The notes: generated from the sequence alone by a model not told the origin. Counted from the first letter of the stretch, positions 3,176-27,925 are shown. The stretch is 64,000 nucleotides of DNA from an archaeon (GCA_035528795.1 DATKXY010000274.1:958-64957), one strand, 5' to 3'. Translations and numbers: made by a program.

Positions 3176-4573
3176 ATGGCTGAAAATAACCGTTTCGATC
3201 TTGTCATACTCGGCGGCGGACCCGGCGGTTATGTGGCGGCTATCAAGGCCGCGCAGGAAGGACTCTCTGCGGCTCTGGTCGAGTCTGACCTTCTGGGCGG
3301 GGTGTGTCTCAACTGGGGGTGTATTCCGAGCAAGGCGCTCCTGGCGAGCGCCCGGTTGTATGAAAATATTCTCCGGGCCAGAGATTTCGGGATCTCGACC
3401 GGTGAGATAAGCTACAACTGGGAGGCCATAGTCAAGCGGAGCCGTCAGGTTGCTGACCGCGCAGCCAAGGGCGTGGCCTACCTGATGAAAAAAAACGGGA
3501 TCACGGTATTTCAGGGCAAAGGCGTGCTGGCCGGACAAGGAAGGATACGCATCGAAGCCGGGGAAGAAAAGGCCGTCTCAGCCGGGAACATTATCCTGGC
3601 TACCGGGGCCCGCCCCAGCGAGATTCCAGGCATTAAAGCGGATGGAGAAACAGTGATCACCTCCCGCGAGGCCCTGGCCCTGAAACACAGGCCGGAGTCA
3701 ATCGTTATAGTGGGGGGAGGGGCGATAGGAATGGAATTCGCCTACCTGTTCAATGCTTTCGGCTCGCTGGTCACGGTTGTCGAGCTCCTGGAGCGGATCC
3801 TTCCCCAGGAGGACCAGGAGATTTCGGAGGAATTGAAAAGGCTTTACCAGCGGAAAGGGATGAACATCCTGACCGGTTCGCAGGTTGAGCGAATCGAAAC
3901 ACCGGCGAATAATAAAGTTTCGGTTCTGGTAAAAACCGGGGATAAATCCGAGAGTTTTGAGTGCGAAAAGGTTCTTGTCGCAGTGGGTGTGCGAGGCAAT
4001 GTCGAGGGAATCGGGTGCGAGGAGGCAGGAGTCGAGGTGGAAAAAGGATTTATCAAGGTGGACCGCAGCTACCGGACGACAGCTTCCGGTATCTGGGCGA
4101 TCGGGGATTGCATAGGGCCGCCGCTTTTGGCCCATGCCGCCTCAGCCGAGGGCATCTCTGCGGTTGAGTCGATTCTCGGCCGCAAAGCGCGCTTCATTGC
4201 CGGCGATCTGGTGCCCAGTTGCATCTACTGCCAGCCCCAGGTGGCGAGTGTCGGGTTGACCGAGGCCGCGGCCTTGCAAGCCGGCCATGAGGTGTCTGTG
4301 GGGCGCTTCCCGTTCCGGCCTCTCGGCAAGGCGCTGGCCCTGGGGGAGCGGGACGGTTTCGTGAAAGCAGTCGTGGACAAAAAGAGCGGGAAATTGCTAG
4401 GCATGCATATACTGGGCCCTGAGGCCACAGAGCTGATTCCGGAAGCTGTGTTTGCCAAATACACCGGCGCCAGTGCCGAGGAGATGCACCACGCCGTGCA
4501 CCCCCACCCTACGCTTTCGGAGGCCCTGGCCGAGGCCGTTTCCGCGGCTACAGGCGCGGCTATCCATCTTTAA
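3176..4573 (+). CDS. lpdA: Dihydrolipoyl dehydrogenase (E3 component)
   Basis: FAD-binding N-terminus GGGPGGYVAAIKAAQ, redox-active disulfide motif GGVCLNWGCIPSKALL, and C-terminal HPHPTLSEA interface motif. 465 aa. RBS GGAGAAAAG lies before the ATG. Confidence 0.9.
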   Translation: MAENNRFDLVILGGGPGGYVAAIKAAQEGLSAALVESDLLGGVCLNWGCIPSKALLASARLYENILRARDFGISTGEISYNWEAIVKRSRQVADRAAKGVAYLMKKNGITVFQGKGVLAGQGRIRIEAGEEKAVSAGNIILATGARPSEIPGIKADGETVITSREALALKHRPESIVIVGGGAIGMEFAYLFNAFGSLVTVVELLERILPQEDQEISEELKRLYQRKGMNILTGSQVERIETPANNKVSVLVKTGDKSESFECEKVLVAVGVRGNVEGIGCEEAGVEVEKGFIKVDRSYRTTASGIWAIGDCIGPPLLAHAASAEGISAVESILGRKARFIAGDLVPSCIYCQPQVASVGLTEAAALQAGHEVSVGRFPFRPLGKALALGERDGFVKAVVDKKSGKLLGMHILGPEATELIPEAVFAKYTGASAEEMHHAVHPHPTLSEALAEAVSAATGAAIHL

Positions 4574-4726
4574 AGAATGCATGCATAGGGTTTAACAGGT
4601 TGAATTACCTGATCTTAACAACCAGAAGAACAACTTAGTTTTTTCTGGACAAATCGGCCTGCAGTTAGTAAAATAACCTTTCATCCGAGACTAAACCCCT
4701 CACCCCAGGGCACGATTGCATACCTC

Positions 4727-5083
4727 ATGCAGAGCTACATAGCCATATTGATTACAATCGTTATTGCCGCGCTGTTAGTGGGTGCAGCCCTCATTCTCAG
4801 CGCGATTATCGGCCCTAAAAGCAAGACCGGCAAAGAGAAGGGAAGGCCTTTCGAATGCGGCAACATTCCCTTCGAAAGACCGGGAAAACGTTTCCCGGTG
4901 CACTTTTACGTAGTAGCCATCCTTTTCATAGTCTTCGATATCGAGATTGTTTTCCTTTACCCATGGATCGCTTCTTTCGGCGCAGTCGGCAAGTACGGCT
5001 TTTTCGCAGCGCTGTTCTTTGTGGCGGTCTTGACTTTCGGTCTGGTGTATGAATGGATCAGAGGGGGACTTGAATGGCACTGA
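4727..5083 (+). CDS. nuoA: NADH-quinone oxidoreductase subunit A
   Basis: 118-aa three-TM protein with PFECG and YVVAILFIVFDIEIVFLYPW motifs typical of NuoA/ND3. Confidence 0.9.
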   Translation: MQSYIAILITIVIAALLVGAALILSAIIGPKSKTGKEKGRPFECGNIPFERPGKRFPVHFYVVAILFIVFDIEIVFLYPWIASFGAVGKYGFFAALFFVAVLTFGLVYEWIRGGLEWH

Positions 5084-5550
5084 GACCCCTGCTGGGAAGC
5101 GCCAGTTTTATCACTGCCCGTCTGGATGAGGCGATTGCCTGGGCGCGGAAATTTTCGATCTTCCCTTACCCTTTTGTAACAGCCTGCTGCGGCATGGAGT
5201 ACATGTCGCTCTCTGCCGCTCACTACGACCTCGACCGCTTCGGGGCCGCTTTTCCACGCTTCACTCCCCGCCAGGCGGACCTCCTTCTCGTAGTGGGAAC
5301 GATCAGCCACAAGATAGCCCCGCTCCTCAGGCGGGTCTACGAGCAGATGACCGAGCCTAAATGGGTGATCGCTTTCGGGGTCTGTACCTGTACCGGCGGC
5401 TTTTACGACAACTACGCCACAGTGCAGGGCATTGACACGATCATCCCGGTGGATGTCTATATCCCGGGCTGCCCGCCCAGGCCGGAAACAGTGCTCCAGG
5501 GGATAATGCTGCTGCAGGAAAAAATCGCCAGGCAGAAACAGGAATACTGA
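5074..5550 (+). CDS. nuoB: NADH-quinone oxidoreductase subunit B
   Basis: CCGMEY...GTISHKIAP...GVCTCTGG...GCPPRP cysteine motifs of the N2 cluster subunit. Start overlaps the nuoA stop (ATGGCACTGA). Confidence 0.9.
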   Translation: MALRPLLGSASFITARLDEAIAWARKFSIFPYPFVTACCGMEYMSLSAAHYDLDRFGAAFPRFTPRQADLLLVVGTISHKIAPLLRRVYEQMTEPKWVIAFGVCTCTGGFYDNYATVQGIDTIIPVDVYIPGCPPRPETVLQGIMLLQEKIARQKQEY

Positions 5551-5698
5551 CCTCTCAGCTTGTTTACAATCGGTGCTGGACAGGTTAAACACATCGATAA
5601 ATTCTGTGCGGTAATTTTGTGCTGCCTCTTGATTAATCCAAGAAAGTGCGGAAGATTCAGCGGAGCGTTTTCTCAAATCTATTTGTGAGCAGGACAAA

Positions 5699-6190
5699 AT
5701 GGAACCGGTGACGGATAACAACACACTGAACACGCTCAGACACCGTTTTGGCGGGGCGATAATCGAAAGCGGACTCGACAGGGGAGACCTCGTAGCGATT
5801 GTAGCCAAAGAGCGCCTTCACGAAATAATCGTCTGTCTAAGAGACGAGCCGGGCCTGAATTTTAAAATGCTGATCGACATTTTTGGAGTGGACTTCCTCC
5901 CGCGCAAGCCCAGATTCGAGGTAGTGTATCATCTCCACTGTCCCGAGCGCAACGAACGGATCCGTCTGAAAGTACAAATCGAGGAACAGGACTGTGAAAT
6001 TGATACTGTCACGGACCTTTATGCCGGGGCCAACTGGTGTGAGCGTGAGACCTGGGACATGTTCGGGATAGTGTTCAAGGGCCACCCCGACCTCAAGCGC
6101 CTGCTGATGTACGAGCCGTTCGAGGGATATCCTCTGAGGCGCGATTACCCGATCAACAAACGTCAGCCGCTGATCGGCCCTCAAAACTAG
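5699..6190 (+). CDS. nuoC: NADH-quinone oxidoreductase subunit C
   Basis: EVVYHL...ERETWDMFGIVFKGHPDLKRLL...FEGYPLRRDYP, the canonical 30-kDa subunit motifs. Confidence 0.85.
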   Translation: MEPVTDNNTLNTLRHRFGGAIIESGLDRGDLVAIVAKERLHEIIVCLRDEPGLNFKMLIDIFGVDFLPRKPRFEVVYHLHCPERNERIRLKVQIEEQDCEIDTVTDLYAGANWCERETWDMFGIVFKGHPDLKRLLMYEPFEGYPLRRDYPINKRQPLIGPQN

Positions 6191-6215
6191 CCCTTGCTCG
6201 AAATCCGGGAAATTT

Positions 6216-7568
6216 ATGGAGACTTTCGAAAACAAAAACAATGAGCAACGCACCGAGACCATGTTTCTCAATGTGGGTCCCTCGCACCCGGCCATGCACG
6301 GTGTAATCCGCATTATCACCGAGCTCGAGGGTGAGCGGATCATGGGCGCCGAGGTGGAGATTGGGTATTTGCACCGCTGTTTCGAGAAGGACTGCGAGAA
6401 TGTCGGCTGGAACCAGGCTTTTCCTTATACGGACCGCTTGAACTACGTAAGCCCGCTTATAAATAACGTGGGCTGGGCCCTGGCAGTGGAAAAGCTGTTC
6501 GGCGTAACAGTGCCCGAGCGCTGCCAGTATATCCGGGTGATTATCTCCGAGCTGAGCCGTCTGGTCGATCACCTGACCTGTATTGGGGCTGCTGCCATGG
6601 AACTCGGGGCCATGACGGTTTTCCTCTATTTCATGAAAGCCAGGGAATATCTCTACGACCTGATCGAATGGCTCGCCGGCGCCCGGATAACTGTCTCCTA
6701 TGTCCGCGTGGGAGGGGTAAAGGGAGACCTCCCGGATGGGTTCGCCGAAAAAACGCGGACCGTGCTCCGGAAGCTGCCCTCGATTATCAAGGAGGTCGAC
6801 AAGCTCCTGACGCGCAACCGGATCTTTATCGACCGGATGAAAGGCCTGGGTCTGCTGGACCGCGAGCGCTCGCTCTCTTACGGGATCACAGGCCCGCTGA
6901 TCAGGGCTGTGGGCGTGCCCTACGATGTGCGCAAGGACATACCCTATCTGGTTTATGACCGGTTCGATTTCGAGATCCCGATCGCCGAGGACGGCGACAA
7001 CTACAGCCGCTACATGGTGCGCATGGAGGAAATGCGCCAGAGTATCAGGATTATCGAGCAGGCTCTCGATCAAATCCCCCCCGGGGCAATTGCTGTGGAC
7101 CCGGAGGGACGCGAGCTGACCGGAGCCGAGATGATTGAGCTGGCCAAGCTCGGGCGCACCAGGGAGTATATTGACGCCAGGGCCAGGGTGGATCTCACTC
7201 TCGAAGGCACTAATTCCGAGTGCGCTTCCCTGGTAAACCTGGCAGAAGAACGCAAGCTGAAACTGCCCTCCAAGGAAGAATGTTACGGCAATATCGAGGG
7301 CATGATGGCGCATTTCATGCAAATCATGGACAACTGGGGAATCCGTCCGCCTGAAGGCGAAGCCTATCAGGCTGTGGAAGGAGCCAACGGCGAGCTGGGG
7401 TTCTACCTCGTTTCCGATGGCAGCGGCAGGCCGATGCGCGCCCGCTGCCGGGGCCCGTGCTTTTTCCCCATGGCCGCCCTGCATGAGATGCTTATCGGCG
7501 ATATGGTGGCCGATATTATCCCTACTTTCGGCTCCATTAACATGATCGCCGGAGAGCTGGACCGCTGA
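6216..7568 (+). CDS. nuoD: NADH-quinone oxidoreductase subunit D
   Basis: MFLNVGPSHPAMHGVIRI...EIGYLHRCFEK. 450 aa, 49-kDa subunit. Confidence 0.9.
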   Translation: METFENKNNEQRTETMFLNVGPSHPAMHGVIRIITELEGERIMGAEVEIGYLHRCFEKDCENVGWNQAFPYTDRLNYVSPLINNVGWALAVEKLFGVTVPERCQYIRVIISELSRLVDHLTCIGAAAMELGAMTVFLYFMKAREYLYDLIEWLAGARITVSYVRVGGVKGDLPDGFAEKTRTVLRKLPSIIKEVDKLLTRNRIFIDRMKGLGLLDRERSLSYGITGPLIRAVGVPYDVRKDIPYLVYDRFDFEIPIAEDGDNYSRYMVRMEEMRQSIRIIEQALDQIPPGAIAVDPEGRELTGAEMIELAKLGRTREYIDARARVDLTLEGTNSECASLVNLAEERKLKLPSKEECYGNIEGMMAHFMQIMDNWGIRPPEGEAYQAVEGANGELGFYLVSDGSGRPMRARCRGPCFFPMAALHEMLIGDMVADIIPTFGSINMIAGELDR

Positions 7569-7723
7569 TTTTTCAATCGCCCGGTGACGGCTGACAGCTC
7601 GTGATTCAGTTATTTGGCAAGATATCAGGCAGGCCTTGAGTGCTTATGGATTCTACAACTAACTTCTCTGATTTTGCGTATCTTGCAGAATACAATGCCA
7701 CGCAGTGCGAAAGGGGAGGACAA

Positions 7724-9277
7724 ATGAAACGCCGCAGTCTTTTCGGGGGTCTGGGCGCTGCATTTACAAGCGCATTAGCGTTCAGCAATTTTATAGTTTC
7801 CAAAAAGGCAGGTGCAAAAACCTGGGCCTCTCAGCCAGTACTGAGAGATGGGACAATCAATCCCTGTGATGTAAAAATCAACTTGAAACCCGTGATGACA
7901 CATATAATTCACACCGGTAAATGGGAAGGGCCGTGCAGGTGGGACCCCGTGAGTGTCAGTGAAGAGAAAGCGCGGGCAGAAGAAAGTTTTATTAAATGGG
8001 CAAAGGAGTGCAAAGAAGGCAAAATAAATCTCGATGAAAAAAATGTAAAAATTCTGGAACCGGTCCATATAAAATTTGCGGAAGATTTTATTTTGAGACA
8101 GGAAGAAATAAATAAGCTGAAGCCGGACAGCCGGGAAATAGACGCTTGTTTTATCCTCGCCTATGGCTCTTCGATTTCCGCCTTTGAGATCGGCAAGCTG
8201 CTCGACAGGCCGATCATGATGGTTGGATTGAACTGCAGAAATGTCGATATCGCCGCTTATACAAGAAGCATGGGTTACGAGGCTTTCGTTCCCGCTGATT
8301 ATGCCGAGCTGAATAAACTTTTATCCTTATTGCGCGCCAGAAAAGTATTTAATCAGACCAGTATTTTATTCCCCACAGACAAAGGGTTGCCGGCGGTATG
8401 TTCGATCTGCGCCATAAACGACCTTCCGGAGCTTGAGGAAAAACTCGGCGTCGCAGTCAAACAGATCCCCTATAAAGAGCTTGACCAGGAAATGAACGAG
8501 GTGATGAACAGCAAAACCGAAAGGGAAAAAGCCGAGCAAGCTGCGGACAAATTGCTCCGGAATGCTCAAAAGTCCTTTATCGACAGGAAATACGTTGTCC
8601 GGAGCATTCAGTTTTATCAGACCGTGAAGAGCTTGATGAACAGGCACGGCTGCAATGCATTCACCATAGAATGTTTCGAGTTTTGCTCAAACAGGCTGCC
8701 GGAAAAATGGACCATTACCCCATGTTTGATCCACACTCTGCTCAGAGACCAGGGATATGCATCCTCGTGTGAGGCGGACCTGGGTTCATTGCTGGCTATG
8801 CAATTGTTAATGTCCGTATCGAATAAATCCTGCCACCAGGGTAACGCAGATCCGGTTCAAGGAAGTGAAGATACCTTTAAAATAAACCACAGCGCACCCA
8901 GCATAAAAATGAACGGTCTCGACCAGCCCTGCCTGCCTTACCAGTTGGGGCGCTTTGTTGCCTCCGGATGGGGCACCAAGGCAGTGATCAATTTCACGAA
9001 TAATACAGAAAAAACAGTCACCGTGGCCAGAGTCGATCCTACTGCATCAAAAGTGCTCGTGTTGAAGGGTGAGCTTGTGGGATCGAGCGGCTGGGACAAT
9101 GACTATCTTGGATGTTCTGTCGAAGCCGTGATCAAACCGCCGGATGGAAGAACCGGGGAATTCATGAAGAAGCGGATTGATTATGGAAATCATCTCCCCT
9201 GGGTTTACGGGGATTATTCCGAGGAAATACGTCAGCTTGGTGAAATGCTCAAGCTGGAGGTTGATGTTATTAGCTGA
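7724..9277 (+). CDS. Twin-arginine (Tat) signal-bearing secreted protein of unknown function, Cys-rich and low-GC, inserted inside the nuo operon.
   Basis: AGGGGAGGA RBS followed by ATG at 7724. The N-terminus MKRRSLFGGLGAAFTSALAFS is a textbook Tat motif (RRSLF plus hydrophobic core plus AFS). The gene is visibly more AT-rich than its nuo neighbours and has many Cys (VCSICAI, ECFEFC, SSCEADLG). No family recognised. The upstream in-frame ATG at 7640 is rejected as the start. Confidence 0.6.
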   Translation: MKRRSLFGGLGAAFTSALAFSNFIVSKKAGAKTWASQPVLRDGTINPCDVKINLKPVMTHIIHTGKWEGPCRWDPVSVSEEKARAEESFIKWAKECKEGKINLDEKNVKILEPVHIKFAEDFILRQEEINKLKPDSREIDACFILAYGSSISAFEIGKLLDRPIMMVGLNCRNVDIAAYTRSMGYEAFVPADYAELNKLLSLLRARKVFNQTSILFPTDKGLPAVCSICAINDLPELEEKLGVAVKQIPYKELDQEMNEVMNSKTEREKAEQAADKLLRNAQKSFIDRKYVVRSIQFYQTVKSLMNRHGCNAFTIECFEFCSNRLPEKWTITPCLIHTLLRDQGYASSCEADLGSLLAMQLLMSVSNKSCHQGNADPVQGSEDTFKINHSAPSIKMNGLDQPCLPYQLGRFVASGWGTKAVINFTNNTEKTVTVARVDPTASKVLVLKGELVGSSGWDNDYLGCSVEAVIKPPDGRTGEFMKKRIDYGNHLPWVYGDYSEEIRQLGEMLKLEVDVIS

Positions 9278-9352
9278 GCGCTGTGTTCTCTCTTCTGGAT
9301 TCAGTATTACTCAGTAATTGCCAATTTATCACTCTTAGGCCAGAGCTCCAGC

Positions 9353-9826
9353 ATGCCTGCAGTTTTTTCGGAGAAAGACAGGAAAATCATTGAAACGCTG
9401 ATCGAGCGCTACCCGCAGAAAAAGGCCGCCCTGGGGGATGTGCTCTATCTGGCCCAGGAGTGTTTCGGCAGCCTGACCCCGGAGGTGGAGGAGTATGTGG
9501 CCGGGGTGATGGACTTGCCGGTCTCCTATGTTCACCAGGTAGTGACCTTTTACACCATGTATCTGCGCAAGCCTCTGGGCAGGTACCACCTTACGCTGTG
9601 CGACAATGTGAGCTGCATGCTTTCCGGAGCGGAAGACCTCCTGGGCCACATCAAAAAGAAGCTGGGCCTCGAGGTAGGGGAAACCACTAAGGACGGGAAA
9701 TTCACTCTCTGGACAGTGGAGTGCCTGGGAGCCTGTGAGCTTGCGCCAGTGCTCATGGTAGGCGACAAGCTTTACGGTAATCTTACCGCTGAAAAAATAG
9801 ACAACCTCCTGGATTCTCTGGAGTGA
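9353..9826 (+). CDS. nuoE: NADH-quinone oxidoreductase subunit E (24-kDa, 2Fe-2S)
   Basis: LTLCDNVSCMLSGAEDL...ECLGACELAPV, the four-Cys thioredoxin-like pattern of NuoE. Confidence 0.85.
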   Translation: MPAVFSEKDRKIIETLIERYPQKKAALGDVLYLAQECFGSLTPEVEEYVAGVMDLPVSYVHQVVTFYTMYLRKPLGRYHLTLCDNVSCMLSGAEDLLGHIKKKLGLEVGETTKDGKFTLWTVECLGACELAPVLMVGDKLYGNLTAEKIDNLLDSLE

Positions 9827-9829
9827 GAC

Positions 9830-11101
9830 ATGGGTCAGGTTAAACTTATCAGCCGTTTTTTCGAGATCGAAAATTCTCATCTCCTCCCGGTTTACGAGAG
9901 GCACGGCGGTTATTCCGCGGCTCGTCGGGTAGTGACTGAAAAATGGCCGATGGAGAAGATCATCTCGACAGTCAAGGCCAGCAACCTGCGTGGTCTGGGC
10001 GGTGCTGGCTTTCCTACGGGTGTCAAGTGGGGCTTTGTCCCCCGGGATCAAGAGGGACCGAAATACCTGGTGGTAAATGCGGATGAGGCCGAGCCCGGCA
10101 CTTTCAAGGACCGCCAGGTGATGCTTAACGCCCCGCATCTTTTGATCGAGGGCATTATTATCGCCGCTCTGTCTTTCGGAGCAAAGGAAGCGTTCATCTA
10201 TATCCGGGGCGAATATTTCGAACCCTGCCTGGTGCTTAAACAGGCGCTCAAAGAGGCCGAAGAAGCGGGTTATCTGGGACATAACATTTTCGGAACCTCC
10301 CGCTCCCTCGAGGTAACTATCCACCGGGGAGCCGGAGCCTATATCTGCGGCGAGGAAACTGCGCTCCTCTCGAGCCTCGAAGGCTTCAAAGGATGGCCCA
10401 AGCTTAAGCCCCCCTTCCCTGCTTTAAAGGGCCTGTTCTCAAAGCCTACTATTATCAACAATGTGGAAACCCTCTCTTACGTTCCGATAGTGATCGATAA
10501 AGGACCGGAGTATTTCGCCGGACTCGGTGTCGAGCGTAGCGGCGGAGCGCGGCTGTTCGGGATAAGCGGCCATGTGAAGAAACCCGGGGTCTACGAGCTT
10601 GCCCTGGGCACACCGATGAGGGAGCTCATTTACGAGCATGCAGGCGGGATCAGGGAAAACAGGGCGCTTAAAGCGGTTATCCCCGGCGGCACAAGCTGCC
10701 CGGTCCTCAAAGCCGGGGAAGCTGATATTTCCCTCGATTTCGACAGCCTGGCGAAAATCGGCTCCATGCTGGGATCGGGCGGAGTGATCGTGATGGACGA
10801 GACCACCGATCTGGTCCGGGTGCTCCACCGGATCTGCAGGTTCTATGCGCACGAATCCTGCGGCCAGTGCACCCCCTGCCGCGAGGGGACCGGCTGGATG
10901 ACCCGGATCATGGAAAGGATCGCGGCTGGAGAGGGCCGCGCCAAGGACCTGGACAACCTGGTGGATATCGCCAATATGATCCTGGGCAACACGATCTGCC
11001 CTCTGGGAGATGCCGCGGCCATGCCGGTTGCCAGCTTTATCACCAAGTTCAGGGAAGAGTTCGAGGCAAAGGTCAAAGCCAAATCAGTCGCTGTGGGGTG
11101 A
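9830..11101 (+). CDS. nuoF: NADH-quinone oxidoreductase subunit F (51-kDa, FMN/NADH-binding)
   Basis: GLGGAGFPTGVKWGF (NADH/FMN site), GEETALLSSLEG, and ESCGQCTPCREG (4Fe-4S). Confidence 0.9.
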   Translation: MGQVKLISRFFEIENSHLLPVYERHGGYSAARRVVTEKWPMEKIISTVKASNLRGLGGAGFPTGVKWGFVPRDQEGPKYLVVNADEAEPGTFKDRQVMLNAPHLLIEGIIIAALSFGAKEAFIYIRGEYFEPCLVLKQALKEAEEAGYLGHNIFGTSRSLEVTIHRGAGAYICGEETALLSSLEGFKGWPKLKPPFPALKGLFSKPTIINNVETLSYVPIVIDKGPEYFAGLGVERSGGARLFGISGHVKKPGVYELALGTPMRELIYEHAGGIRENRALKAVIPGGTSCPVLKAGEADISLDFDSLAKIGSMLGSGGVIVMDETTDLVRVLHRICRFYAHESCGQCTPCREGTGWMTRIMERIAAGEGRAKDLDNLVDIANMILGNTICPLGDAAAMPVASFITKFREEFEAKVKAKSVAVG

Positions 11102-11120
11102 GTTTTCCAGCGGAGGAGTT

Positions 11121-12770
11121 TTGAGCCTGAACGGCATAAAAAAGGTCAGGGTGGTAATTGACGGGAACGAGCACCTCTTTCCCGTGGGGATGACAATCTT
11201 CGAGGCCGCAGAGAGCGTGGGGATCGAAATCCCCCATTACTGCTACCATCCCGGGCTTCCGATTGCCGGCGCCTGCAGGATGTGCCTGGTGGAGATCGAA
11301 AAAATACCCAAACTGCAGATCTCCTGCTATATGACAGTCGGGGACGGGATGGTGATCCGCACCAACACAGAGCGGGTGAAAAGGGCCCGGGCCGCAATGC
11401 TCGAATTCCACCTGGTGAACCACCCGCTCGACTGCCCGGTTTGCGACCAGGCCGGAGAATGCGGCCTTCAGATTTATTACATGACGCACGGCCTCTATAT
11501 CTCCAGACTGCTCGAGAACAAGGTCAAGAAGACCAAAAAGGCAGCCCAGATCGGCCCGCACGTGATGCTCGACCAGGAGCGCTGCATACTCTGCAGCCGG
11601 TGCGTCAGGTTTTGCGCCGAGATCTCGAAAAGCCACGAGCTGGGCATTTTCGAACGGGGAGACTACAGCGAGCTCGATATTTTCCCTGGCAAACAGCTCG
11701 ACAATCCTTACTCTGGCAATGTAGTGGATATCTGCCCGGTGGGCGCTTTGACAGACCGGGATTTCCGCTTCAAGACCAGGGTCTGGTACCTGGAAGAGGC
11801 TGAATCGGTGTGCCCGCGCTGCGCCAATGGATGCAACATCTATATCCACTACAATCTCAAGCGGCCATATAAGAACGACGGCCGACGGATAAGCCGTCTC
11901 AAGCCCCGCTACAACAGCGAGGTCAATGACTGGTGGATCTGCGATGAGGGCCGCTACTGTTTCAAGTTCGCAGATAACGATGACAGGCTCCTCGAGCCCC
12001 TTGTGCGCCAGGACAGCCGGACAGCCAGACCGGGATGGGAGGAGACTCTCGGGCGGGCCGCTGAAAGGCTGCGCGCCACCGCCGCCGCTGCTAAAGTGGA
12101 GGTGGCTGTCCTTGTTTCACCGCAAGCATCCAATGAAGAACTGCACATTACAAAGAGAATTTTCAACGAGCAGCTTCCGGGATGCGGGTTCTATTTCAGT
12201 GCGCTGTCGCCTTTCGAGCCTACTGAAGACAGCCTGCTGCGCAAAAAGGATAAAAACCCGAACACCAGAGGTGCAGAGCTTATGGGCTTGAGCTCGGATT
12301 CAGCCGGGGTGAAAAGCCTCGCTGAGCTCAAATCAGCGGCCCTGGCCGGCAAAATCGGCGCGCTCTTTATCGCCTACCATGATCCGCCGGGTCTGCCGGA
12401 ATCCGAAAACCGGGGCTGGGCTGAGGCCATCGAGCGCATACCTTTAATTATCTATCAGGGTACCAACAATACGGCAACCAGCCGCTCGGCGCATATTGTG
12501 CTTCCTGCGGCAACTTTCGCAGAGCGCGAGGGCACGGTGACAAATTCAAGCTCCAGAGTACAGATCCAACGGCGCGCTTTCAGCCCGGCGGGCGAGGCGC
12601 TTCCAGGCTGGGAGATCATGCGCTGCCTGGGCGAGGCATTGGGCGGAGTCTACAGGTTCGAAAATGCAGAGCAGGTTTTTGACGATATGGCTCAGAAATA
12701 TCCGGCCTTTGCCGGGCTGGACTATGGAAAAATCGGCTCATCAGGGATCATTGTAACGAGCGGGAAATAG
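11121..12770 (+). CDS. nuoG: NADH-quinone oxidoreductase subunit G, short form of about 549 aa
   Basis: VVIDGNEH...IPHYCYHPGLPIAGACRMCLVEIE (2Fe-2S ferredoxin), HPLDCPVCDQAGEC and CILCSRCVRFC (4Fe-4S). A TTG at 11121 preceded by GGAGGA is preferred as the start over the ATG at 11010, which lies 90 nt inside nuoF. The protein is markedly shorter than the 780-910-aa NuoG of model organisms. Confidence 0.8.
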   Translation: MSLNGIKKVRVVIDGNEHLFPVGMTIFEAAESVGIEIPHYCYHPGLPIAGACRMCLVEIEKIPKLQISCYMTVGDGMVIRTNTERVKRARAAMLEFHLVNHPLDCPVCDQAGECGLQIYYMTHGLYISRLLENKVKKTKKAAQIGPHVMLDQERCILCSRCVRFCAEISKSHELGIFERGDYSELDIFPGKQLDNPYSGNVVDICPVGALTDRDFRFKTRVWYLEEAESVCPRCANGCNIYIHYNLKRPYKNDGRRISRLKPRYNSEVNDWWICDEGRYCFKFADNDDRLLEPLVRQDSRTARPGWEETLGRAAERLRATAAAAKVEVAVLVSPQASNEELHITKRIFNEQLPGCGFYFSALSPFEPTEDSLLRKKDKNPNTRGAELMGLSSDSAGVKSLAELKSAALAGKIGALFIAYHDPPGLPESENRGWAEAIERIPLIIYQGTNNTATSRSAHIVLPAATFAEREGTVTNSSSRVQIQRRAFSPAGEALPGWEIMRCLGEALGGVYRFENAEQVFDDMAQKYPAFAGLDYGKIGSSGIIVTSGK

Positions 12771-12777
12771 TGAAGGT

Positions 12778-13869
12778 TTGTTTATGTTGATCGATCTGTT
12801 GATCAAAACAATTGTCATCCTTGTGGTCTTGAACGGGGTTCTCGCTTTCGGCGGGTTTCTCACCTGGGTTGAGCGCAAGCAGAGCGCGGTGATGCAGGAC
12901 CGTATCGGCGCAAACCGCGCCTCTATCCTCGGCTTCAGGCTCTGGGGGCTGTTTCATATCCTGAGCGACGGGATCAAGATGTTCGCCAAGGAGGAGTTCA
13001 CCCCGACCACCGAGTACCGCAAGCTGTTCTGGCTCGCCCCGTTTATCTCGTGGTTTTTCGCCCTGACAGCCTTTGCGGTCATCCCTTTCTCTGATACTAT
13101 CAGCCTGTGGGGCAAAGAGCTGACCCTTCAGATTGCCAACCCGGAGATCGGCATCCTGTTTGTTTTTGCGATGATGGGTATGTCGATCTACGGGGTGATC
13201 CTCGGCGGCTGGTCCTCGAGCAACAATTACGCCCTCCTGGGAGCCATGCGGGCCAGCGCGCAGATGATAAGCTACGAGGTGGCTCTGGCAGCTTCCGTGG
13301 TCGGGCCGCTGATCGTGTTCGGAACCCTGAACATGCAGAAAATTGTCGAGTGGCAGGGCCAGACTTACGGCGGCTGGCTGCCCCTGTGGGGAGTAGTGGT
13401 GCAGCCCCTGGCTTTTCTTCTGTTTATCACCGCCGGTGCGGCGGAAACCAAAAGGGTGCCTTTTGACCTGCCAGAGGGCGAGTCCGAGATTATCGGCTTC
13501 AACCTCGAGTATTCGAGCATGCGTTTCGGCGCTTTCATGTTCACTGACTTCGTGGAAAAGATACTCGTGTCCTGCCTGACTGTCACAGTGTTCCTGGGCG
13601 GCTGGCAGGTCCCGTTCCTGGCAGAGAGCGGCTTCGTTTACGGCCCGGAAACCTTGCTCCCGCTGGATATCAGGCTTGTCTGGCTGCTCCGGGCGGCCGC
13701 TTTCCTGGTCAAAGTCTGTATCGTGATCTATGTTCTGATGCTCGTGCGCTGGACCCTGCCCCGCTTCCGTTACGACCAGCTCATGCGCCTGGGCTGGAAA
13801 TTCCTGCTGCCGCTGGCTTTCGCCAATATAGTGGTCACTGCTGCGGTGGTCTTTATCCTGAATTCGTGA
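12778..13869 (+). CDS. nuoH: NADH-quinone oxidoreductase subunit H
   Basis: Polytopic protein with GFLTWVERK...MQDRIGANR...GLFHILSDGIKMF...EGESEI motifs of NuoH/ND1. Confidence 0.9.
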   Translation: MFMLIDLLIKTIVILVVLNGVLAFGGFLTWVERKQSAVMQDRIGANRASILGFRLWGLFHILSDGIKMFAKEEFTPTTEYRKLFWLAPFISWFFALTAFAVIPFSDTISLWGKELTLQIANPEIGILFVFAMMGMSIYGVILGGWSSSNNYALLGAMRASAQMISYEVALAASVVGPLIVFGTLNMQKIVEWQGQTYGGWLPLWGVVVQPLAFLLFITAGAAETKRVPFDLPEGESEIIGFNLEYSSMRFGAFMFTDFVEKILVSCLTVTVFLGGWQVPFLAESGFVYGPETLLPLDIRLVWLLRAAAFLVKVCIVIYVLMLVRWTLPRFRYDQLMRLGWKFLLPLAFANIVVTAAVVFILNS

Positions 13870-13910
13870 ATCAGACCGGATAAGTCATTTGTTGGAGGTT
13901 TTATATCATC

Positions 13911-14489
13911 TTGGGCAAGATAACTGTTAAAAAGATCGATACCAGGCCTACGCTCACCTTTCTCGAGCGCACGTACCTGAAAGAAATCCTGCGGGGTTTG
14001 TGGATCACCAACCTGCATTTCGTGGTCAATATCTTTTTCCACATCCTGCACCTGTTCGGGATCAGGACAAGACGAAAAGGGGCGGTGACAATCCAGTACC
14101 CGGAGGAGCACAGGGGCTACCACCGCCGCCTGCGCACCTCGCACTACTTGACAAAGCGCGAGGACGGCAGCCCGCGCTGCGTGGGCTGCATGATGTGCGA
14201 GACAGTCTGCCCGGCCCACTGTATCTTTATCACCGCTAAGGAACACCCGGACCCGAACGTGGAAAAACAGGCTTATTCCTATACTATCGATATGGGCAGG
14301 TGTGTCTACTGCGGGTTCTGTGTCGAGGCCTGCCCTGAGGATGCGATCCGCATGGACTCGGGCCACCTGGAGATCAGTGCCTACAGCCGGGAAGAAATGG
14401 TCTACCCCATAGACCGGCTGCTGAAGATCGAGCATGATCCCAAGCCGTACAAGGACTATGGAAAATATCTCGAGGAGTTTTTGAGGTAA
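13911..14489 (+). CDS. nuoI: NADH-quinone oxidoreductase subunit I (2x[4Fe-4S] ferredoxin)
   Basis: CVGCMMCETVCP and CVYCGFCVEACP tandem ferredoxin motifs. 192 aa. Confidence 0.85.
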   Translation: MGKITVKKIDTRPTLTFLERTYLKEILRGLWITNLHFVVNIFFHILHLFGIRTRRKGAVTIQYPEEHRGYHRRLRTSHYLTKREDGSPRCVGCMMCETVCPAHCIFITAKEHPDPNVEKQAYSYTIDMGRCVYCGFCVEACPEDAIRMDSGHLEISAYSREEMVYPIDRLLKIEHDPKPYKDYGKYLEEFLR

Positions 14490-14665: not shown

Positions 14666-16609
14666 CTACCTCATGATCTGCTCTGCCAGCTCGAGGCGCG
14701 CCCTGTACCAGTCTTCCGGCCTGTGCGACCAGCTCCCCGGATCAGACACCGGGTCCCCTGGGAAAGGCCAGGTCTCCCGCAGGGCCCGCCTGATTATCCG
14801 GCTCACTATCCGGTCAGCCGCTGCCCCGCTGTCGCTGTTTTTCCGGGTGAGCAGCCAGAAATACTCGTAATCCTGAATACTGCGGCGCATCATTTTGAGC
14901 CTGATCGAGGGCAGCACCTCGCCAGGCAGGCCTATCTGTTCTCCCGGGTAAATATACATGACCCGGAGGTAGCTACCGCTAAGGTCCTCGCTCTTTCCCA
15001 TCCGGCGGAACACATTGCGCCCGCCGGTCACCGCGAACTCCCAGTCGCACACTCCGCCGATACGGTTCTTCCAGGCAATCCACATCCAGGTGCGGAACCC
15101 CAGGGACTCGCCGTTGACATTGTTAGTCCCGACAGCAGGCGCATAACCGTTGTAGAACCAGACATCGGTCCAGGGGCTTCCCGGGCGCATGTTGAGCACT
15201 TCCGGGACTAGACACACGCCGTGGCAGTTCCACAGATCGACCACATCTTTCAGATAGCTCACTGTCTCCCGGGTGCCGGGCGCGATCTTCCCGTCAACGT
15301 CGAGGTCAACAGCAGCGCTCAGGCCGTAATCGATATCAGTGCGGTATTTGATCCGTCCGGCGCCGCTCTCTTTGAGAATCTCCCCGAAGCGCCTGACCAG
15401 GCGCAGCTCCTTGCCCTGGGGTCCCGGCTCATCCACTCCGCCAGGGAAAAAGTAGATTCTCGTTTCAGTCCAGCCCCGCTCGTTGAAATGCCGCTCGAAC
15501 TCGAGGAGAATCCGCTTGAGGGCGGCTTCGTATTCAGGTGTAAAATGCTCTAAGGCGCTGTCTCCAGGCATAGGGAACGGCCAGTTGCGGCCCTTCCAGG
15601 CTCCCCCTTTGTCCTCGCGCCAGATTCGGGCGTCAATCGGCAGGACAATATGCTTTACAGGCTGCCCCCGGCCCGGGCCTTCCACGAATGCCGAGCCGTC
15701 GAAAAACCTGCCCCACCGCTGGTCGTACTGTCGCCAGTCAAACTTTACTCCATACCCTTCCCCCACCAGCTCCGGACCGATCGTGCTCGGGCAGAGAGTG
15801 AGCCTGTGGCTCTGGGCCATGCGCCAGGTTTTCAGTTCCAGCTCCTCCGGTCCCCTGGCGAGCCGTCCATAATCGAGGATCTCCCAGGTAGTGTGAAACT
15901 CATCCGGGATGGTGAAATCAAAAACCTCAAGCTCCATGGAGAGGACCAGGTCCGGTTCCCCCCCGGCGCTTACCTGCAGCGTGCCGCGATATTTTCCAGC
16001 GCTAGCGCTGTCCGGCACATAAAGGTCCATCCAGACAGCCTGGTTGGTCTGGGTCGTGAGATACTGAAAAGGCTTGCCTTCTTCATCGAGCGAATAAAAA
16101 TCCTCGCCCGGGATATCAAAAGGCGCCCCGTGTTTCTGCGCATCGAGCGGGATCAGGGCATCCGGGTACCAGCCGGTCTTTAAGGGAAAAAAGACACCCT
16201 TTTCCCTCTGGCTTCGGGTGAGTAGAATGTACCATTCCCTGAAAAGCCTGACCTGCGAGGCCGGGATGCTCGCGCCGCCTGCTGATTCGAGGCCCGACAC
16301 TCCGATTGAAACCCCTCTGACAGGCCGGTCTGTGGCGATAATCAACTGGCAGGAGACCACTTCATTGCAGGCAGCTTTGAGGGAGATCGTGCGGGAATAA
16401 GAGTCCCAGACCCAGTTTTTTTCCCTGCAGCCGGATTCGATTACAGGCCCGAAAAAGGTCTGCATCCCTTCGATTGCTCTTCCAGATTCCGGGTCAATCC
16501 GCACCCCGTCCCCGACAGCCCAGACATCCAGTGCGCAGGCGTGATCCACTGAAGAAAAAATTATGCCTGCCAAAATGAAGAAAAAGAGCGCATGACAGTT
16601 CATTTTCAT
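14666..16609 (-). CDS. Secreted 647-aa protein, a putative glycoside hydrolase (DUF4091/GH123-like). The family assignment is tentative.
   Basis: N-terminal signal peptide MKMNCHALFFFILAGIIFSSVDHACA. Size, the Trp/Tyr-rich composition and the sugar-gene context are consistent with DUF4091-type hydrolases. No catalytic motif could be confirmed by eye. Confidence 0.35.
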   Translation of the reverse strand: MKMNCHALFFFILAGIIFSSVDHACALDVWAVGDGVRIDPESGRAIEGMQTFFGPVIESGCREKNWVWDSYSRTISLKAACNEVVSCQLIIATDRPVRGVSIGVSGLESAGGASIPASQVRLFREWYILLTRSQREKGVFFPLKTGWYPDALIPLDAQKHGAPFDIPGEDFYSLDEEGKPFQYLTTQTNQAVWMDLYVPDSASAGKYRGTLQVSAGGEPDLVLSMELEVFDFTIPDEFHTTWEILDYGRLARGPEELELKTWRMAQSHRLTLCPSTIGPELVGEGYGVKFDWRQYDQRWGRFFDGSAFVEGPGRGQPVKHIVLPIDARIWREDKGGAWKGRNWPFPMPGDSALEHFTPEYEAALKRILLEFERHFNERGWTETRIYFFPGGVDEPGPQGKELRLVRRFGEILKESGAGRIKYRTDIDYGLSAAVDLDVDGKIAPGTRETVSYLKDVVDLWNCHGVCLVPEVLNMRPGSPWTDVWFYNGYAPAVGTNNVNGESLGFRTWMWIAWKNRIGGVCDWEFAVTGGRNVFRRMGKSEDLSGSYLRVMYIYPGEQIGLPGEVLPSIRLKMMRRSIQDYEYFWLLTRKNSDSGAAADRIVSRIIRRALRETWPFPGDPVSDPGSWSHRPEDWYRARLELAEQIMR

Positions 16610-23019: not shown

Positions 23020-23808
23020 ATGAAAAAGTTATTAGCTGTTTTGGCTGCAATTTCTGTCATTTTCATCCTTTATTTCGCCTGCGAGACAGACGATCCCAAG
23101 CTTTCTTCCTCCCCCGAATTAGCTGCTGCAGAAAAAGAGGTTGCCACTTTATCAGTTTCCATAAAAACAAACGGAGGGCCGGTCAGGAAATTTAAGCTTC
23201 AGGCAATCGAGTGGGATGGAGTACAGGATATCCAACCCGATAAGTTTTATGAGATGTCAGCAGAAAAAAGGAATTCCTTTCAGGAAAAATTAGAAACCCA
23301 GAGAGGTAAGAAAGCAACAGGAGTAAAAACGAAAGTATCCGTAAACAGAGACAGTCCGGAATTGGCGGGGTGGGATTCAGCACCGGGTTTATTCGCTTAT
23401 GCTTCTGCTGAATGTTTTACTAGCAGCTGCCATGGCTCCTGTCAGACTACTGCAAGTCAATATTACTATAATACCAAGACACATGAACATGAGTTTTGCA
23501 GTCCGGGAAAATATCGTTATTACTCTCATGAAGATGAATTCTCAGAATGGAGTGAAATAGATACGCAATACGACAATGATGACCCCCGATTAACCTGTGA
23601 GAGTATTTTAGTAAGAGATGATTATTATTATGCTTGGTGGGATACTATAAGTGTATGGAGAATAAGATTAGCTGCAATGCCTGGAGGAGATGATGACGAA
23701 AAAGATAATCCTCCTTCCCCACCATATGATTGGGAGGATATTGTAATTCAAAAATGGATAAAAATTCCAGGGGATGCTGTCAACGCAAGTGATAATTGTG
23801 GCAACTGA
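23020..23808 (+). CDS. Putative lipoprotein (262 aa) of unknown function, AT-rich and probably horizontally acquired.
   Basis: MKKLLAVLAAISVIFILYFAC signal with a Cys lipobox-like end. Codon usage is AT-rich in a roughly 60% GC genome. The protein has an acidic, Tyr/Trp-rich C-terminal half. Confidence 0.55.
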   Translation: MKKLLAVLAAISVIFILYFACETDDPKLSSSPELAAAEKEVATLSVSIKTNGGPVRKFKLQAIEWDGVQDIQPDKFYEMSAEKRNSFQEKLETQRGKKATGVKTKVSVNRDSPELAGWDSAPGLFAYASAECFTSSCHGSCQTTASQYYYNTKTHEHEFCSPGKYRYYSHEDEFSEWSEIDTQYDNDDPRLTCESILVRDDYYYAWWDTISVWRIRLAAMPGGDDDEKDNPPSPPYDWEDIVIQKWIKIPGDAVNASDNCGN

Positions 23809-26515: not shown

Positions 26516-27925
26516 TTACTTCTTCAACCTTACCACCACGCAGCGCTGCATATCCCTGGCCCTTGCCGCTCCGGCCTTTTCGACCGGAAATTTCCCGCCA
26601 GCCAGAGCTGCCAGGCGAGCCTGGTCCACTCCCTCTCCGGTCAGGTAATCCCGGACAGCATGGGCCCTTCTGAAAGAAATCCCCAGACTGTTTTTGCTCT
26701 CGCCTGCCTGGTCAGCATAGCCGATGATCTCGAGCTTCACCCAGTCCGCTGATTTCAGAAGGCGGGCAAGCTGCTCCAACTGGCTGTAGAACCCCGGTTT
26801 GATCTGTGAGCTGTTGAGATCGAAAAACACCTGCAAGTAGAAATCTTCCGCACCGATTAGCGGGCAGCCTTTTTCATCCACCGGAAGAGAGGCCGGGGTG
26901 CCAGGGCACTGGTCAATCCCGTCAGGAACACCATCACGGTCCGAATCGAGCATCCGGCCGCTTTGATCGACCACCGCGCCCCTGGGTGTGTCGGGTTCGA
27001 GGTCAAGGTCATCAGGCACGCTGTCACCATCCGAATCAGGGAGCGGAACCGGTTCCTCTTCCTTGACTACCAAATTTTCAAGCGGACAGCCCTGGTCGTC
27101 CACCTGCACGCCTGCCGGAGTGTCCGGGCACATGTCCAGATAATCAGGCACCCCGTCACTGTCCATGTCAACCGGGCAGCCGCTCTTTGTGACTGCAACC
27201 TCCGGCGGGGTGTCCGGGCATTCGTCCATCTCATCCTGCACACCGTCCCTGTCCGTGTCCACTGCCTCTTTGGCCACCTTGCCGAAAAGGATAGTCACCC
27301 CTGCGCCGAACTCCCAGTTGTGGGTCTCCCGGTCTCCGCGCAAATCACTGTCAATAAAGTCGCGCTCCAGGTAATGGTCATGCACATCACAGCACAAACC
27401 GACATAGCTTTGCAAGAAATACTCAAAGCCGGCGCCGAAAATTATCAGGTCGCGCTTTTCACTCTTTTCGCTATCCAGCCCGGCACTGTTAGTCTTATCA
27501 ATAGCATAGTCGAACTTCATCTCGGCCTGTCCCAGAGCCACTGAAAGATAAGGCACGAAAGAGCCGAGAGGCAGATTTATGCGGGCACCCCCGCCATATG
27601 CGTCATAACGCGCGCTGTTTGGCAGCAGACCCTGCTGGCCCTCGGAAACGACCCCTTTAAGGCCGCGCATATAGAAGCCTTCAATCCCGAGAACAGAGCA
27701 CAGGTCAAAGCCTGCCCTTGCTCCCCACAGGGGCCCGTTCTCCAGAAGATTGGCCGGCTGATACTCCATCCAGTGGCCGAGCACGGGACTGACATACAGG
27801 GTGCCCAGCCTGTGGTTTGCCTGGACCGGCCGGGTCCAGACAAAAAAGACCGCCAATAACCCAGCAAGCCGGATAAAGCCTGGATTGATCAAGCGCATTG
27901 TTTCTCTAAAAAAAAAACGAGACAT
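26516..27925 (-). CDS. OmpA-family outer-membrane protein with an N-terminal beta-barrel-like domain and thrombospondin type-3 (TSP3) Ca-binding repeats
   Basis: Signal peptide, then repeated D-x-D-x-DG-x-x-D-x-x-D-x-CPDTP units (DTDRDGVQDEMDECPDTP, DMDSDGVPDYLDMCPDTP, DSDRDGVPDGIDQCPGTP). The C-terminus is OmpA-like (ESKNSLGISFRRAHAVRDYL). Confidence 0.75.
   Translation of the reverse strand: MSRFFFRETMRLINPGFIRLAGLLAVFFVWTRPVQANHRLGTLYVSPVLGHWMEYQPANLLENGPLWGARAGFDLCSVLGIEGFYMRGLKGVVSEGQQGLLPNSARYDAYGGGARINLPLGSFVPYLSVALGQAEMKFDYAIDKTNSAGLDSEKSEKRDLIIFGAGFEYFLQSYVGLCCDVHDHYLERDFIDSDLRGDRETHNWEFGAGVTILFGKVAKEAVDTDRDGVQDEMDECPDTPPEVAVTKSGCPVDMDSDGVPDYLDMCPDTPAGVQVDDQGCPLENLVVKEEEPVPLPDSDGDSVPDDLDLEPDTPRGAVVDQSGRMLDSDRDGVPDGIDQCPGTPASLPVDEKGCPLIGAEDFYLQVFFDLNSSQIKPGFYSQLEQLARLLKSADWVKLEIIGYADQAGESKNSLGISFRRAHAVRDYLTGEGVDQARLAALAGGKFPVEKAGAARARDMQRCVVVRLKK

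Follow-up and report, generated by a model that had tools for sequence, protein, structure and literature searches.

The window analysed here, a stretch of 64,000 nt (DATKXY010000274.1:958-64957), carries on one strand, in this order, lpd (3176-4573), nuoA to nuoD (4727-7568), an additional open reading frame (ORF), and nuoE to nuoI (9353-14489). The ORF is intact and extends on the + strand from an ATG at position 7724 to a stop codon at 9277; its 517-residue product begins with MKRRSLFGGLGAAFTSALAFS. It lies 155 nt downstream of nuoD and 75 nt upstream of nuoE and so splits nuoABCD from nuoEFGHI, just as an earlier note on this DNA had claimed. The upstream neighbor, nuoD (6216-7568, + strand, 450 residues), matches the Complex1_49kDa model, and its closest relatives, at 77 to 81% identity, are the NuoD proteins of Candidatus Glassbacteria metagenome-assembled genomes (MAGs), one of which is labelled Gemmatimonadales. 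The downstream neighbor, nuoE (9353-9826, + strand, 157 residues), matches 2Fe-2S_thioredx, is followed by nuoFGHI, and shows synteny with the Glassbacteria loci.

A strong Shine-Dalgarno sequence, GGGGAGG, can be read at 7713-7719 on the + strand, 4 nt 5' of the ATG. A GTG at 7640 was considered as an alternative start and dropped, because the homologues start with MxRR and the Shine-Dalgarno sequence precedes the ATG at 7724. The first 140 nt of the upstream spacer (7569-7708) are found in this genome only, matching neither the nuoD-nuoE spacers of the relatives nor the DNA around the gene in the closest homologue loci. With the closest of these loci (L010 and L176), the nucleotide similarity, 84 to 85% identity by blastn, is limited to positions 7709-9278, that is, the ribosome-binding site and the coding sequence, and the flanks are unrelated. 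Neither this spacer nor the one downstream of the ORF (9278-9352) contains a sequence resembling a promoter or a terminator on the + strand. An Rfam scan of the whole window gave no match, and no paralogue of the ORF is found elsewhere within the 64 kb. The closest non-nuo genes in the window include three that lie on the opposite strand and encode a GH123-like hydrolase, a phosphofructokinase, and an aldose 1-epimerase.

In four Glassbacteria relatives (L012, L013, L014, and L025) the lpd-nuoABCDEFGHI order is kept and the nuoD-nuoE spacer is only 20 to 33 nt long. The comparison of related nuo operons that the earlier note had proposed shows that an ORF-like gene is absent from 12 nuo loci, these four and more distant ones included. 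Conversely, 0 of the 86 other homologue loci contain a nuo or lpd gene. These data support the ORF as a lineage-specific insertion in an otherwise contiguous nuo operon. Its location inside the complex I operon is confined to this Glassbacteria genome, where it is most likely a passenger.

The base composition of the ORF (47.2% GC, GC3 of 0.54) is below that of the nuo genes (50 to 58% GC, GC3 of 0.60 to 0.78), in line with the AT-rich codon usage ascribed to it previously. Against the whole window, however, the deviation is only moderate. The ORF is in the 11th percentile of GC content among same-length segments of the 64 kb, its GC3 is approximately 1.3 standard deviations under the gene mean of the window, and by synonymous codon usage it ranks as the 8th most atypical of 46 genes. 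Genes of still lower GC content are found at 23020-23808 (41%) and 30622-32220 (45.7%).

The first 31 residues (7724-7816) have the organization of a twin-arginine signal peptide, with the KRRSLF motif, a Gly/Ala-rich h-region, basic residues K27 and K28 in the c-region, and AGA before the predicted cleavage site. Of 116 full-length homologues, 110 have the pattern RRx[FLIM][LFIVM] among their first 30 residues. The homologues begin M-x-R-R, and their N-terminal consensus, MNRRDFL, is a canonical Tat motif. Six homologues have a lipobox variant of the signal, the close clade conserves an A-x-A site before the mature domain, and the Pfam TAT_signal model gives weak matches in 13 of 54 homologues. 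No other Tat-like N termini are found within the 64-kb window; nor are Tat machinery genes seen there, the window being only part of the genome. Judging from this conservation, the Tat signal noticed earlier is real and conserved throughout the family, and the protein would be exported to the periplasm. AraA and FucI are oligomers, and oligomerization ahead of export is one possible reason for the use of Tat. Another plausible reason, by analogy, is that a metal bound only weakly, such as Mn2+, has to be captured while the protein folds in the cytosol: Tat export lets MncA of Synechocystis, a periplasmic cupin, trap Mn2+ in that compartment (PMC8867077). This rationale may be common to MncA and the ORF product, whose folds are unrelated.

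A search of a large sequence database scored 559 homologues of the ORF product. Every homologue with a named source is annotated as "hypothetical protein," the sources being Planctomycetota (Thermoguttaceae and Pirellulaceae) and Kiritimatiellae; the database copy of the ORF itself is labelled "archaeon." Among the 120 homologue matches listed, none has a precomputed Pfam domain. An exhaustive profile search retrieved 1,362 clusters (50% identity) at E values up to 1e-3, with 138 of them at 1e-30 or better. Many of these clusters start at profile position ~41 to 47, indicating relatives without a signal peptide. One such paralogue, in locus L009, is encoded 2 kb from an exported copy and shows 33% identity.

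No characterized-family model recognizes the ORF product at its cut-off, and its identity to L-arabinose isomerase (AraA) and to L-fucose/D-arabinose isomerase (FucI) amounts to no more than 12 to 14%. The scores are 18.9 bits for the Pfam AraA_central domain (cut-off, 24) and likewise 18.9 bits for the NCBIfam L-arabinose isomerase equivalog PRK02929 (cut-off, 622). The FucI models of Pfam (Fucose_iso_C and the N-terminal domains) do not match the ORF product; among 54 homologues, AraA_central matches 16 weakly and Fucose_iso_C 6, with a best E value of 1e-3. The best-scoring curated model is that of the sulfoquinovose isomerase SftI (NCBIfam NF048012), which covers the central and C-terminal domains, residues 235 to 515 only, with 45.5 bits and an E value of 4e-12 for the ORF product and 1.7e-15 for the paralogue that lacks a signal peptide. 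These scores of 45 to 57 bits fall far short of the model's 700-bit cut-off, genes of sulfoglycolysis are not seen nearby, and the ORF product, by prediction, is exported.

When solved structures were searched by sequence, the single sequence had no match and a profile of 54 sequences gave only noise (E values of ~0.5 to 0.7). An AlphaFold model built with 54 homologues has a pLDDT of 89 and a pTM of 0.87, and only residues 1 to 39 are disordered (pLDDT below 50). Foldseek comparison of this model with the PDB shows L-arabinose isomerases as the top matches (E values of 7e-20 to ~1e-19, TM scores of 0.65 to 0.69), followed by L-fucose and D-arabinose isomerases, with nothing else below 1e-3 and no redox protein among the matches. 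An hhalign comparison of the broad family with AraA gives a probability of 94% and an E value of 1e-7 over 394 columns. This probability was reached only with the broad alignment, which adds the distant relatives from the exhaustive profile search to the narrow family. The narrow family alignment aligned with AraA over only ~67 columns at a probability below 2%, and its forced alignments by separate domains were of low confidence. The remote homology searches and structure prediction proposed in the earlier note, through Foldseek and hhalign, thus identify the AraA/FucI fold, and the predicted structure shows the complete three domains of an L-arabinose/L-fucose isomerase. The family is best described as an uncharacterized, exported, and mildly novel branch of the isomerase superfamily.

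The mature three-domain region (7817-9277, + strand) contains the candidate metal-binding or catalytic residues E350, D352, N374, H389, and H490, plus H371. In the hhalign mapping, E350 corresponds to AraA E306, D352 to D308, H389 to H350, and H490 to H449 or H450 (±1), so that the AraA Mn2+ ligands Glu306, His350, and His450 all have counterparts by alignment. In 34 sequences, down to 23% identity, no variation is seen at D352, G373, N374, H389, and H490, and very little at E350. Glu333 of AraA serves as its second carboxylate ligand and as the catalytic base; in the alignment, E333-D334 sits opposite the invariant G373-N374. The nearby E382 of the ORF product is not conserved (Glu in 15 of 54 homologues). 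This replacement of the E333 equivalent by Gly-Asn suggests that the metal site is remodelled and that the chemistry may differ. Invariance of H371, H63, and four further Cys residues is confined to the exported clade.

The ORF product contains 15 Cys residues (48, 71, 96, 142, 171, 226, 229, 310, 317, 321, 334, 349, 370, 403, and 464), fewer than the 20 or more counted in the earlier note. Seven of these (71, 171, 317, 321, 334, 349, and 464) are invariant in the exported clade, and C334, C349, and C464 remain invariant, with C317 nearly so, even among relatives without a signal peptide. Of the two pairs singled out previously, CFEFC (C317 and C321) is invariant among the homologues, whereas CSIC (C226 and C229), the sole CxxC of the protein, is not conserved, with Gly in place of C229 in 35 of 54 homologues. 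Neither CxxCH nor CxxCxxC motifs can be read in the sequence, in agreement with the lack of a heme or Fe-S motif reported before.

The neighborhoods of the homologues are poorly conserved, and clustering of neighbors over 86 loci revealed no strongly conserved partner. The commonest neighbor, in 12 of the 86 loci, is a Tat-signal GFO_IDH_MocA oxidoreductase. Others include glycoside hydrolases of families GH2, GH127, and GH106, sugar transporters of the MFS and SSF families, a XylR-like regulator, AP_endonuc_2, 3keto-disac_hyd/DUF1080, PfkB, and class II aldolase. Such variable contexts indicate carbohydrates generally and no single pathway. Several of these families belong to the periplasmic 3-keto-glycoside route of Bacteroides and others (PMC8121099; bioRxiv 10.1101/2024.03.25.586180), and this route can be regarded as a lead to the pathway of the ORF family. 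No AraA/FucI-superfamily isomerase within the 3-keto-glycoside pathway was found in the literature searched, and searches on SftI, on Tat and fucose isomerase in Planctomycetes, and on URFs in nuo or nqo operons yielded nothing pertinent.

Among known systems, E. coli AraA (P08202; PDB 2hxg and 4f2d; Pfam PF02610, PF24856, and PF11762) resembles the ORF product in its fold and in the Glu/His/His counterparts. It differs by sequence, the ORF product being under every model cut-off, and by Glu333, in whose place the ORF family has the invariant Gly-Asn. The ORF also lies outside an araBAD context, and its product has a Tat signal and seven invariant Cys residues, in contrast to E. coli AraA (L095), which starts directly at the enzyme domain. 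FucI (PDB 4c20, 1fui, and 3a9r; PF02952 and others) likewise shares the fold, but it has ~590 residues with extra N-terminal elements and is encoded in fucPIK-type contexts. In delivering a "cytoplasmic-type" sugar enzyme to the periplasm in a folded state by means of a twin-arginine signal, the ORF family would resemble two kinds of cofactor-carrying sugar enzymes, Zymomonas glucose-fructose oxidoreductase and the Tat-signal GFO_IDH_MocA enzymes (PMC8121099; bioRxiv 10.1101/2024.03.25.586180). Genes for GFO_IDH_MocA oxidoreductases, DUF1080/3keto-disac_hyd, and AP_endonuc_2 recur beside ORF homologues; the fold and presumed chemistry of the ORF product differ from those of the Tat-exported GFO-type enzymes. 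No FucI is known to have a signal peptide.

The reading we prefer, with a probability of roughly 0.7, is that the ORF encodes an uncharacterized Tat-exported enzyme of the AraA/FucI superfamily, whose gene was relocated into the nuoD-nuoE spacer, is passively transcribed there, and has no role in complex I. The three-domain enzyme would fold in the cytoplasm and there load a divalent metal, with E350, H389, and H490 as candidate ligands and H371 or N374 possibly replacing the second Glu of AraA. The folded enzyme would then be exported via Tat. In the periplasm, it might act on a sugar, either free or modified, and convert it most probably through aldose-ketose (ene-diol type) isomerization or a related rearrangement, with the product being taken up and passed to a kinase and an aldolase. 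At the DNA level, a cassette consisting of the ribosome-binding site and the coding sequence (7709-9278), with ~215 nt of unique flanks, would have landed in the short nuoD-nuoE spacer. The ORF would be transcribed by the same read-through from the nuo promoter that is required for nuoEFGHI; as the cassette brings no terminator, nuoEFGHI would still be transcribed and the ORF would ride along. The fold, the residue conservation, the Tat motif, the location peculiar to this genome, and the purifying selection come from the data themselves, and we infer the export, the metal, the chemistry, and the co-transcription of the ORF with nuo.

An alternative of a different kind, in which the isomerase scaffold houses a Cys-ligated cofactor (Fe-S, Zn, or another metal) and the protein is a periplasmic redox or other nonisomerase enzyme, the cofactor being the reason for Tat, appears improbable. 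It would account for the seven Cys residues invariant in the exported clade, among them C317-x3-C321 and C349, which adjoins the ligand E350, for the persistence of C334, C349, C464, and, nearly, C317 in relatives without a signal peptide, and for the invariance of H63 and H371 in the exported clade. Tat substrates often carry complex cofactors. The redox-type protein envisaged in the earlier note finds no echo in a fold that is that of an isomerase, with the metal-site residues of that family, or in relatives that lie among carbohydrate rather than respiratory genes. Still less probable is a noncatalytic exported sugar-binding protein, or pseudo-enzyme, of isomerase descent. The loss of the E333-equivalent carboxylate and the absence of a conserved operon partner would fit it, but E350, D352, N374, H389, and H490 show little or no variation even among deeply divergent relatives and the gene is under strong purifying selection, as expected of a maintained active site. 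A functional complex I accessory, or an electron-transfer partner in the periplasm that the operon has recruited, is very improbable. The ORF is on the same strand as its neighbors in the operon with no terminator signature, so that it is probably co-expressed with nuo, and it is both intact and under purifying selection. Against such a role, it is missing from the nuo operons of four close and of more distant relatives, its homologues are not nuo-linked, and it has the predicted fold of a sugar isomerase. Moreover, NuoD and NuoE are part of the cytoplasmic arm of complex I, and the ORF product would be periplasmic. As regards complex I, the ORF is most likely an ordinary passenger.

An assembly chimera or mis-join might be suspected in a metagenome-assembled contig from a MAG that NCBI labels "archaeon," but its probability is close to nil: the nuoD-ORF-nuoE order was independently assembled in 7 contigs (ENA and Logan assemblies, different runs), which shows that the arrangement is not chimeric. 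The closest relatives of the ORF product (76 to 86% identity) are encoded at three other loci in other Glassbacteria-type genomes, near genes for sugar kinases, aldolases, transporters, and oxidoreductases. The closest copy (L176/L178, 84 to 86% identity) lies beside PfkB, a lyxose-isomerase-like cupin, two URO-D-family genes, a class II aldolase, an SSF symporter, 3keto-disac_hyd, and BNR_2. A copy with 77 to 78% identity lies on contig CAZJQI010000019 between PTA_PTB and AP_endonuc_2/QueC; in the same MAG (CAZJQI01), nuoD and nuoE are uninterrupted (contig CAZJQI010000046, L014). A copy with 76 to 77% identity in MAG CAZSTM01 (which also holds L033) is located between PhoD and BipA, with two GFO_IDH_MocA genes, AP_endonuc_2, and ThuA in its neighborhood. 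In tetranucleotide composition, the L178 flanks correlate with the window at 0.90 to 0.92; for comparison, the value is 0.96 between the two halves of the window, 0.94 for Glassbacteria nuo loci, and 0.4 to 0.7 for unrelated loci of similar GC content.

In a neighbor-joining tree, the Glassbacteria-type copies form one clade, and the sister clade is found on contigs of 38 to 43% GC (L008 and L009). The gene is 7 to 15 percentage points lower in GC than its surroundings in every Glassbacteria-type host (47 versus 53 to 58%, 46 versus 53%, 40 versus 55%, and 46 versus 54% in the four hosts). The term "foreign" applied in the earlier note is half right: the nearest relatives reside in other Glassbacteria-type MAGs at different loci, which makes relocation within the lineage as likely, on that ground, as a fresh import. 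Overall, a recent horizontal acquisition from a low-GC donor that does not belong to Glassbacteria is possible but rather unlikely. The GC content below that of the flanks in every host, the low-GC loci of the sister clade, and the four different positions in four genomes favor it, but the copy in the window groups with Glassbacteria-type contigs, two of them assigned by MAG membership and one by the tetranucleotide correlation. In addition, the divergence of the CAZJQI copy is like that of the housekeeping proteins compared with the same MAG (78% identity for NuoD, 82% for NuoF, 71% for NuoE, and 68% for lpd), which fits residence in the lineage predating the split of these genomes. The gene thus reads as one that is resident in, or repeatedly exchanged among, Glassbacteria and that changes its position, with the nuo site found in this genome only. 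The "selfish insertion" suggested previously is half right. No terminal repeats, target duplication, or att-like sites beyond chance are seen in 7300-9700, a repeat common to both spacers is not significant (its alignment score was reached by 72 of 500 shuffles), and no transposase or integrase gene is apparent beside the insert, whose neighbors are nuoD and nuoE. The dN/dS ratio of the ORF versus the closest copy is 0.12, equal to that of nuoD versus L014; the ORF is therefore under purifying selection and is maintained.

The greater gain lies in the protein family, with more than 550 homologues and ~138 clusters (50% identity) at E values of 1e-30 or better, spread over Planctomycetota, Kiritimatiellia, and Glassbacteria-type MAGs and representing a predicted exported AraA/FucI relative with a largely conserved metal site. 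The known sugar isomerases of the AraA/FucI superfamily, AraA among them, work in the cytoplasm. A periplasmic isomerase, if true, would add a step to models of extracytoplasmic sugar processing by these polysaccharide-degrading bacteria. A bolder proposal, which we consider speculative and rather unlikely, is that the family is the first extracytoplasmic, Tat-exported branch of AraA/FucI. It would have a remodelled Glu/His/His plus His371 center, seven invariant Cys residues, and a periplasmic sugar chemistry new to the fold, acting, for example, on keto-sugar intermediates of the 3-keto-glycoside route beside Tat-exported GFO-type dehydrogenases, and in this genome it would be wired for expression with complex I. 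For the nuo operon itself, the ORF is mainly a caution: an unrelated passenger can be accommodated even in a conserved respiratory operon, so that the place of a gene in an operon should not be taken as evidence of what it does. Tolerated extra genes of this kind have a precedent in the nqo cluster of Paracoccus and the nuo cluster of Rhodobacter, both of which contain unidentified reading frames.

Homologues of the gene for the Tat-signal AraA/FucI-fold protein between nuoD and nuoE (7724-9277, + strand) are found in several Glassbacteria-type loci, at positions 10001-11548 of L179, 5084-6631 of L181, and 838-2391 of L176. In every Glassbacteria-type genome, the GC content of the homologue is 7 to 15 points lower than that of its flanks, with GC3 values down to 0.34 within a locus of 55% GC. 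The gene appears to be resident in this lineage. Its low GC content persists, without amelioration, despite this apparent residence. Recent acquisition from a foreign source is more plausible for the gene at 23020-23808 (+ strand) than for the gene between nuoD and nuoE; this gene at 23020-23808 is the strongest compositional outlier of the window (GC, 41%; GC3, 0.34) and has the worst codon-usage fit. Its 262-aa product contains a signal-like N-terminal sequence, is rich in Cys, Tyr, and Asp, and has no match in a Pfam search. Another low-GC ORF (45.7%; 30622-32220, - strand) encodes a 532-aa protein with a hydrophobic C-terminal segment; it likewise gave no match in a Pfam search and is unrelated to the AraA/FucI-fold protein.

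In NCBI, the window's own copy (P0001), a protein of the source metagenome-assembled genome (MAG), is titled "hypothetical protein VM123_20500 [archaeon]." The lpd-nuo genes of the window are 67 to 87% identical to those of MAGs of "Candidatus Glassbacteria" (Gemmatimonadota related), and its tetranucleotide usage matches these MAGs. Judging from these sequence comparisons, the source MAG appears to carry a wrong taxonomic label.

In six homologues (P0090, P0105, P0111, P0115, P0118, and P0120), the twin-arginine motif is followed by a lipobox (LQGC). These six proteins look like Tat-dependent lipoproteins, which independently supports a predicted extracytoplasmic location of the family. The contig L009 encodes a signal-less paralogue 2 kb upstream of an exported copy (genes at 838-2112 and 4132-5535; 33% identity; E value, 2e-59). 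The paralogue retains the candidate metal-binding or catalytic residues E350, D352, N374, H389, and H490 and lacks H371 and several of the cysteines. This pair would be useful for telling core catalytic residues from those specific to the exported clade. Genes of the URO-D family (uroporphyrinogen decarboxylase/methyltransferase-like) recur beside the close-clade homologues in loci L008, L009, L176, and L178, with two copies in L008 and two in L176/L178. These neighbors may hint at the substrate class, e.g., methylated sugars.

The nuo cluster of the window ends at 14489 with nuoI, and the first gene past it encodes a GH123-like glycoside hydrolase (14666-16609, - strand); therefore, nuoJKLMN must be located elsewhere in the genome. 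Within the cluster, nuoB and nuoC are separated by a gap of 148 nt (5551-5698), whereas nuoA and nuoB overlap. Farther downstream in the window, two OmpA-family paralogues that carry thrombospondin type 3 repeats lie in tandem on the - strand (26516-27925 and 27957-29336).
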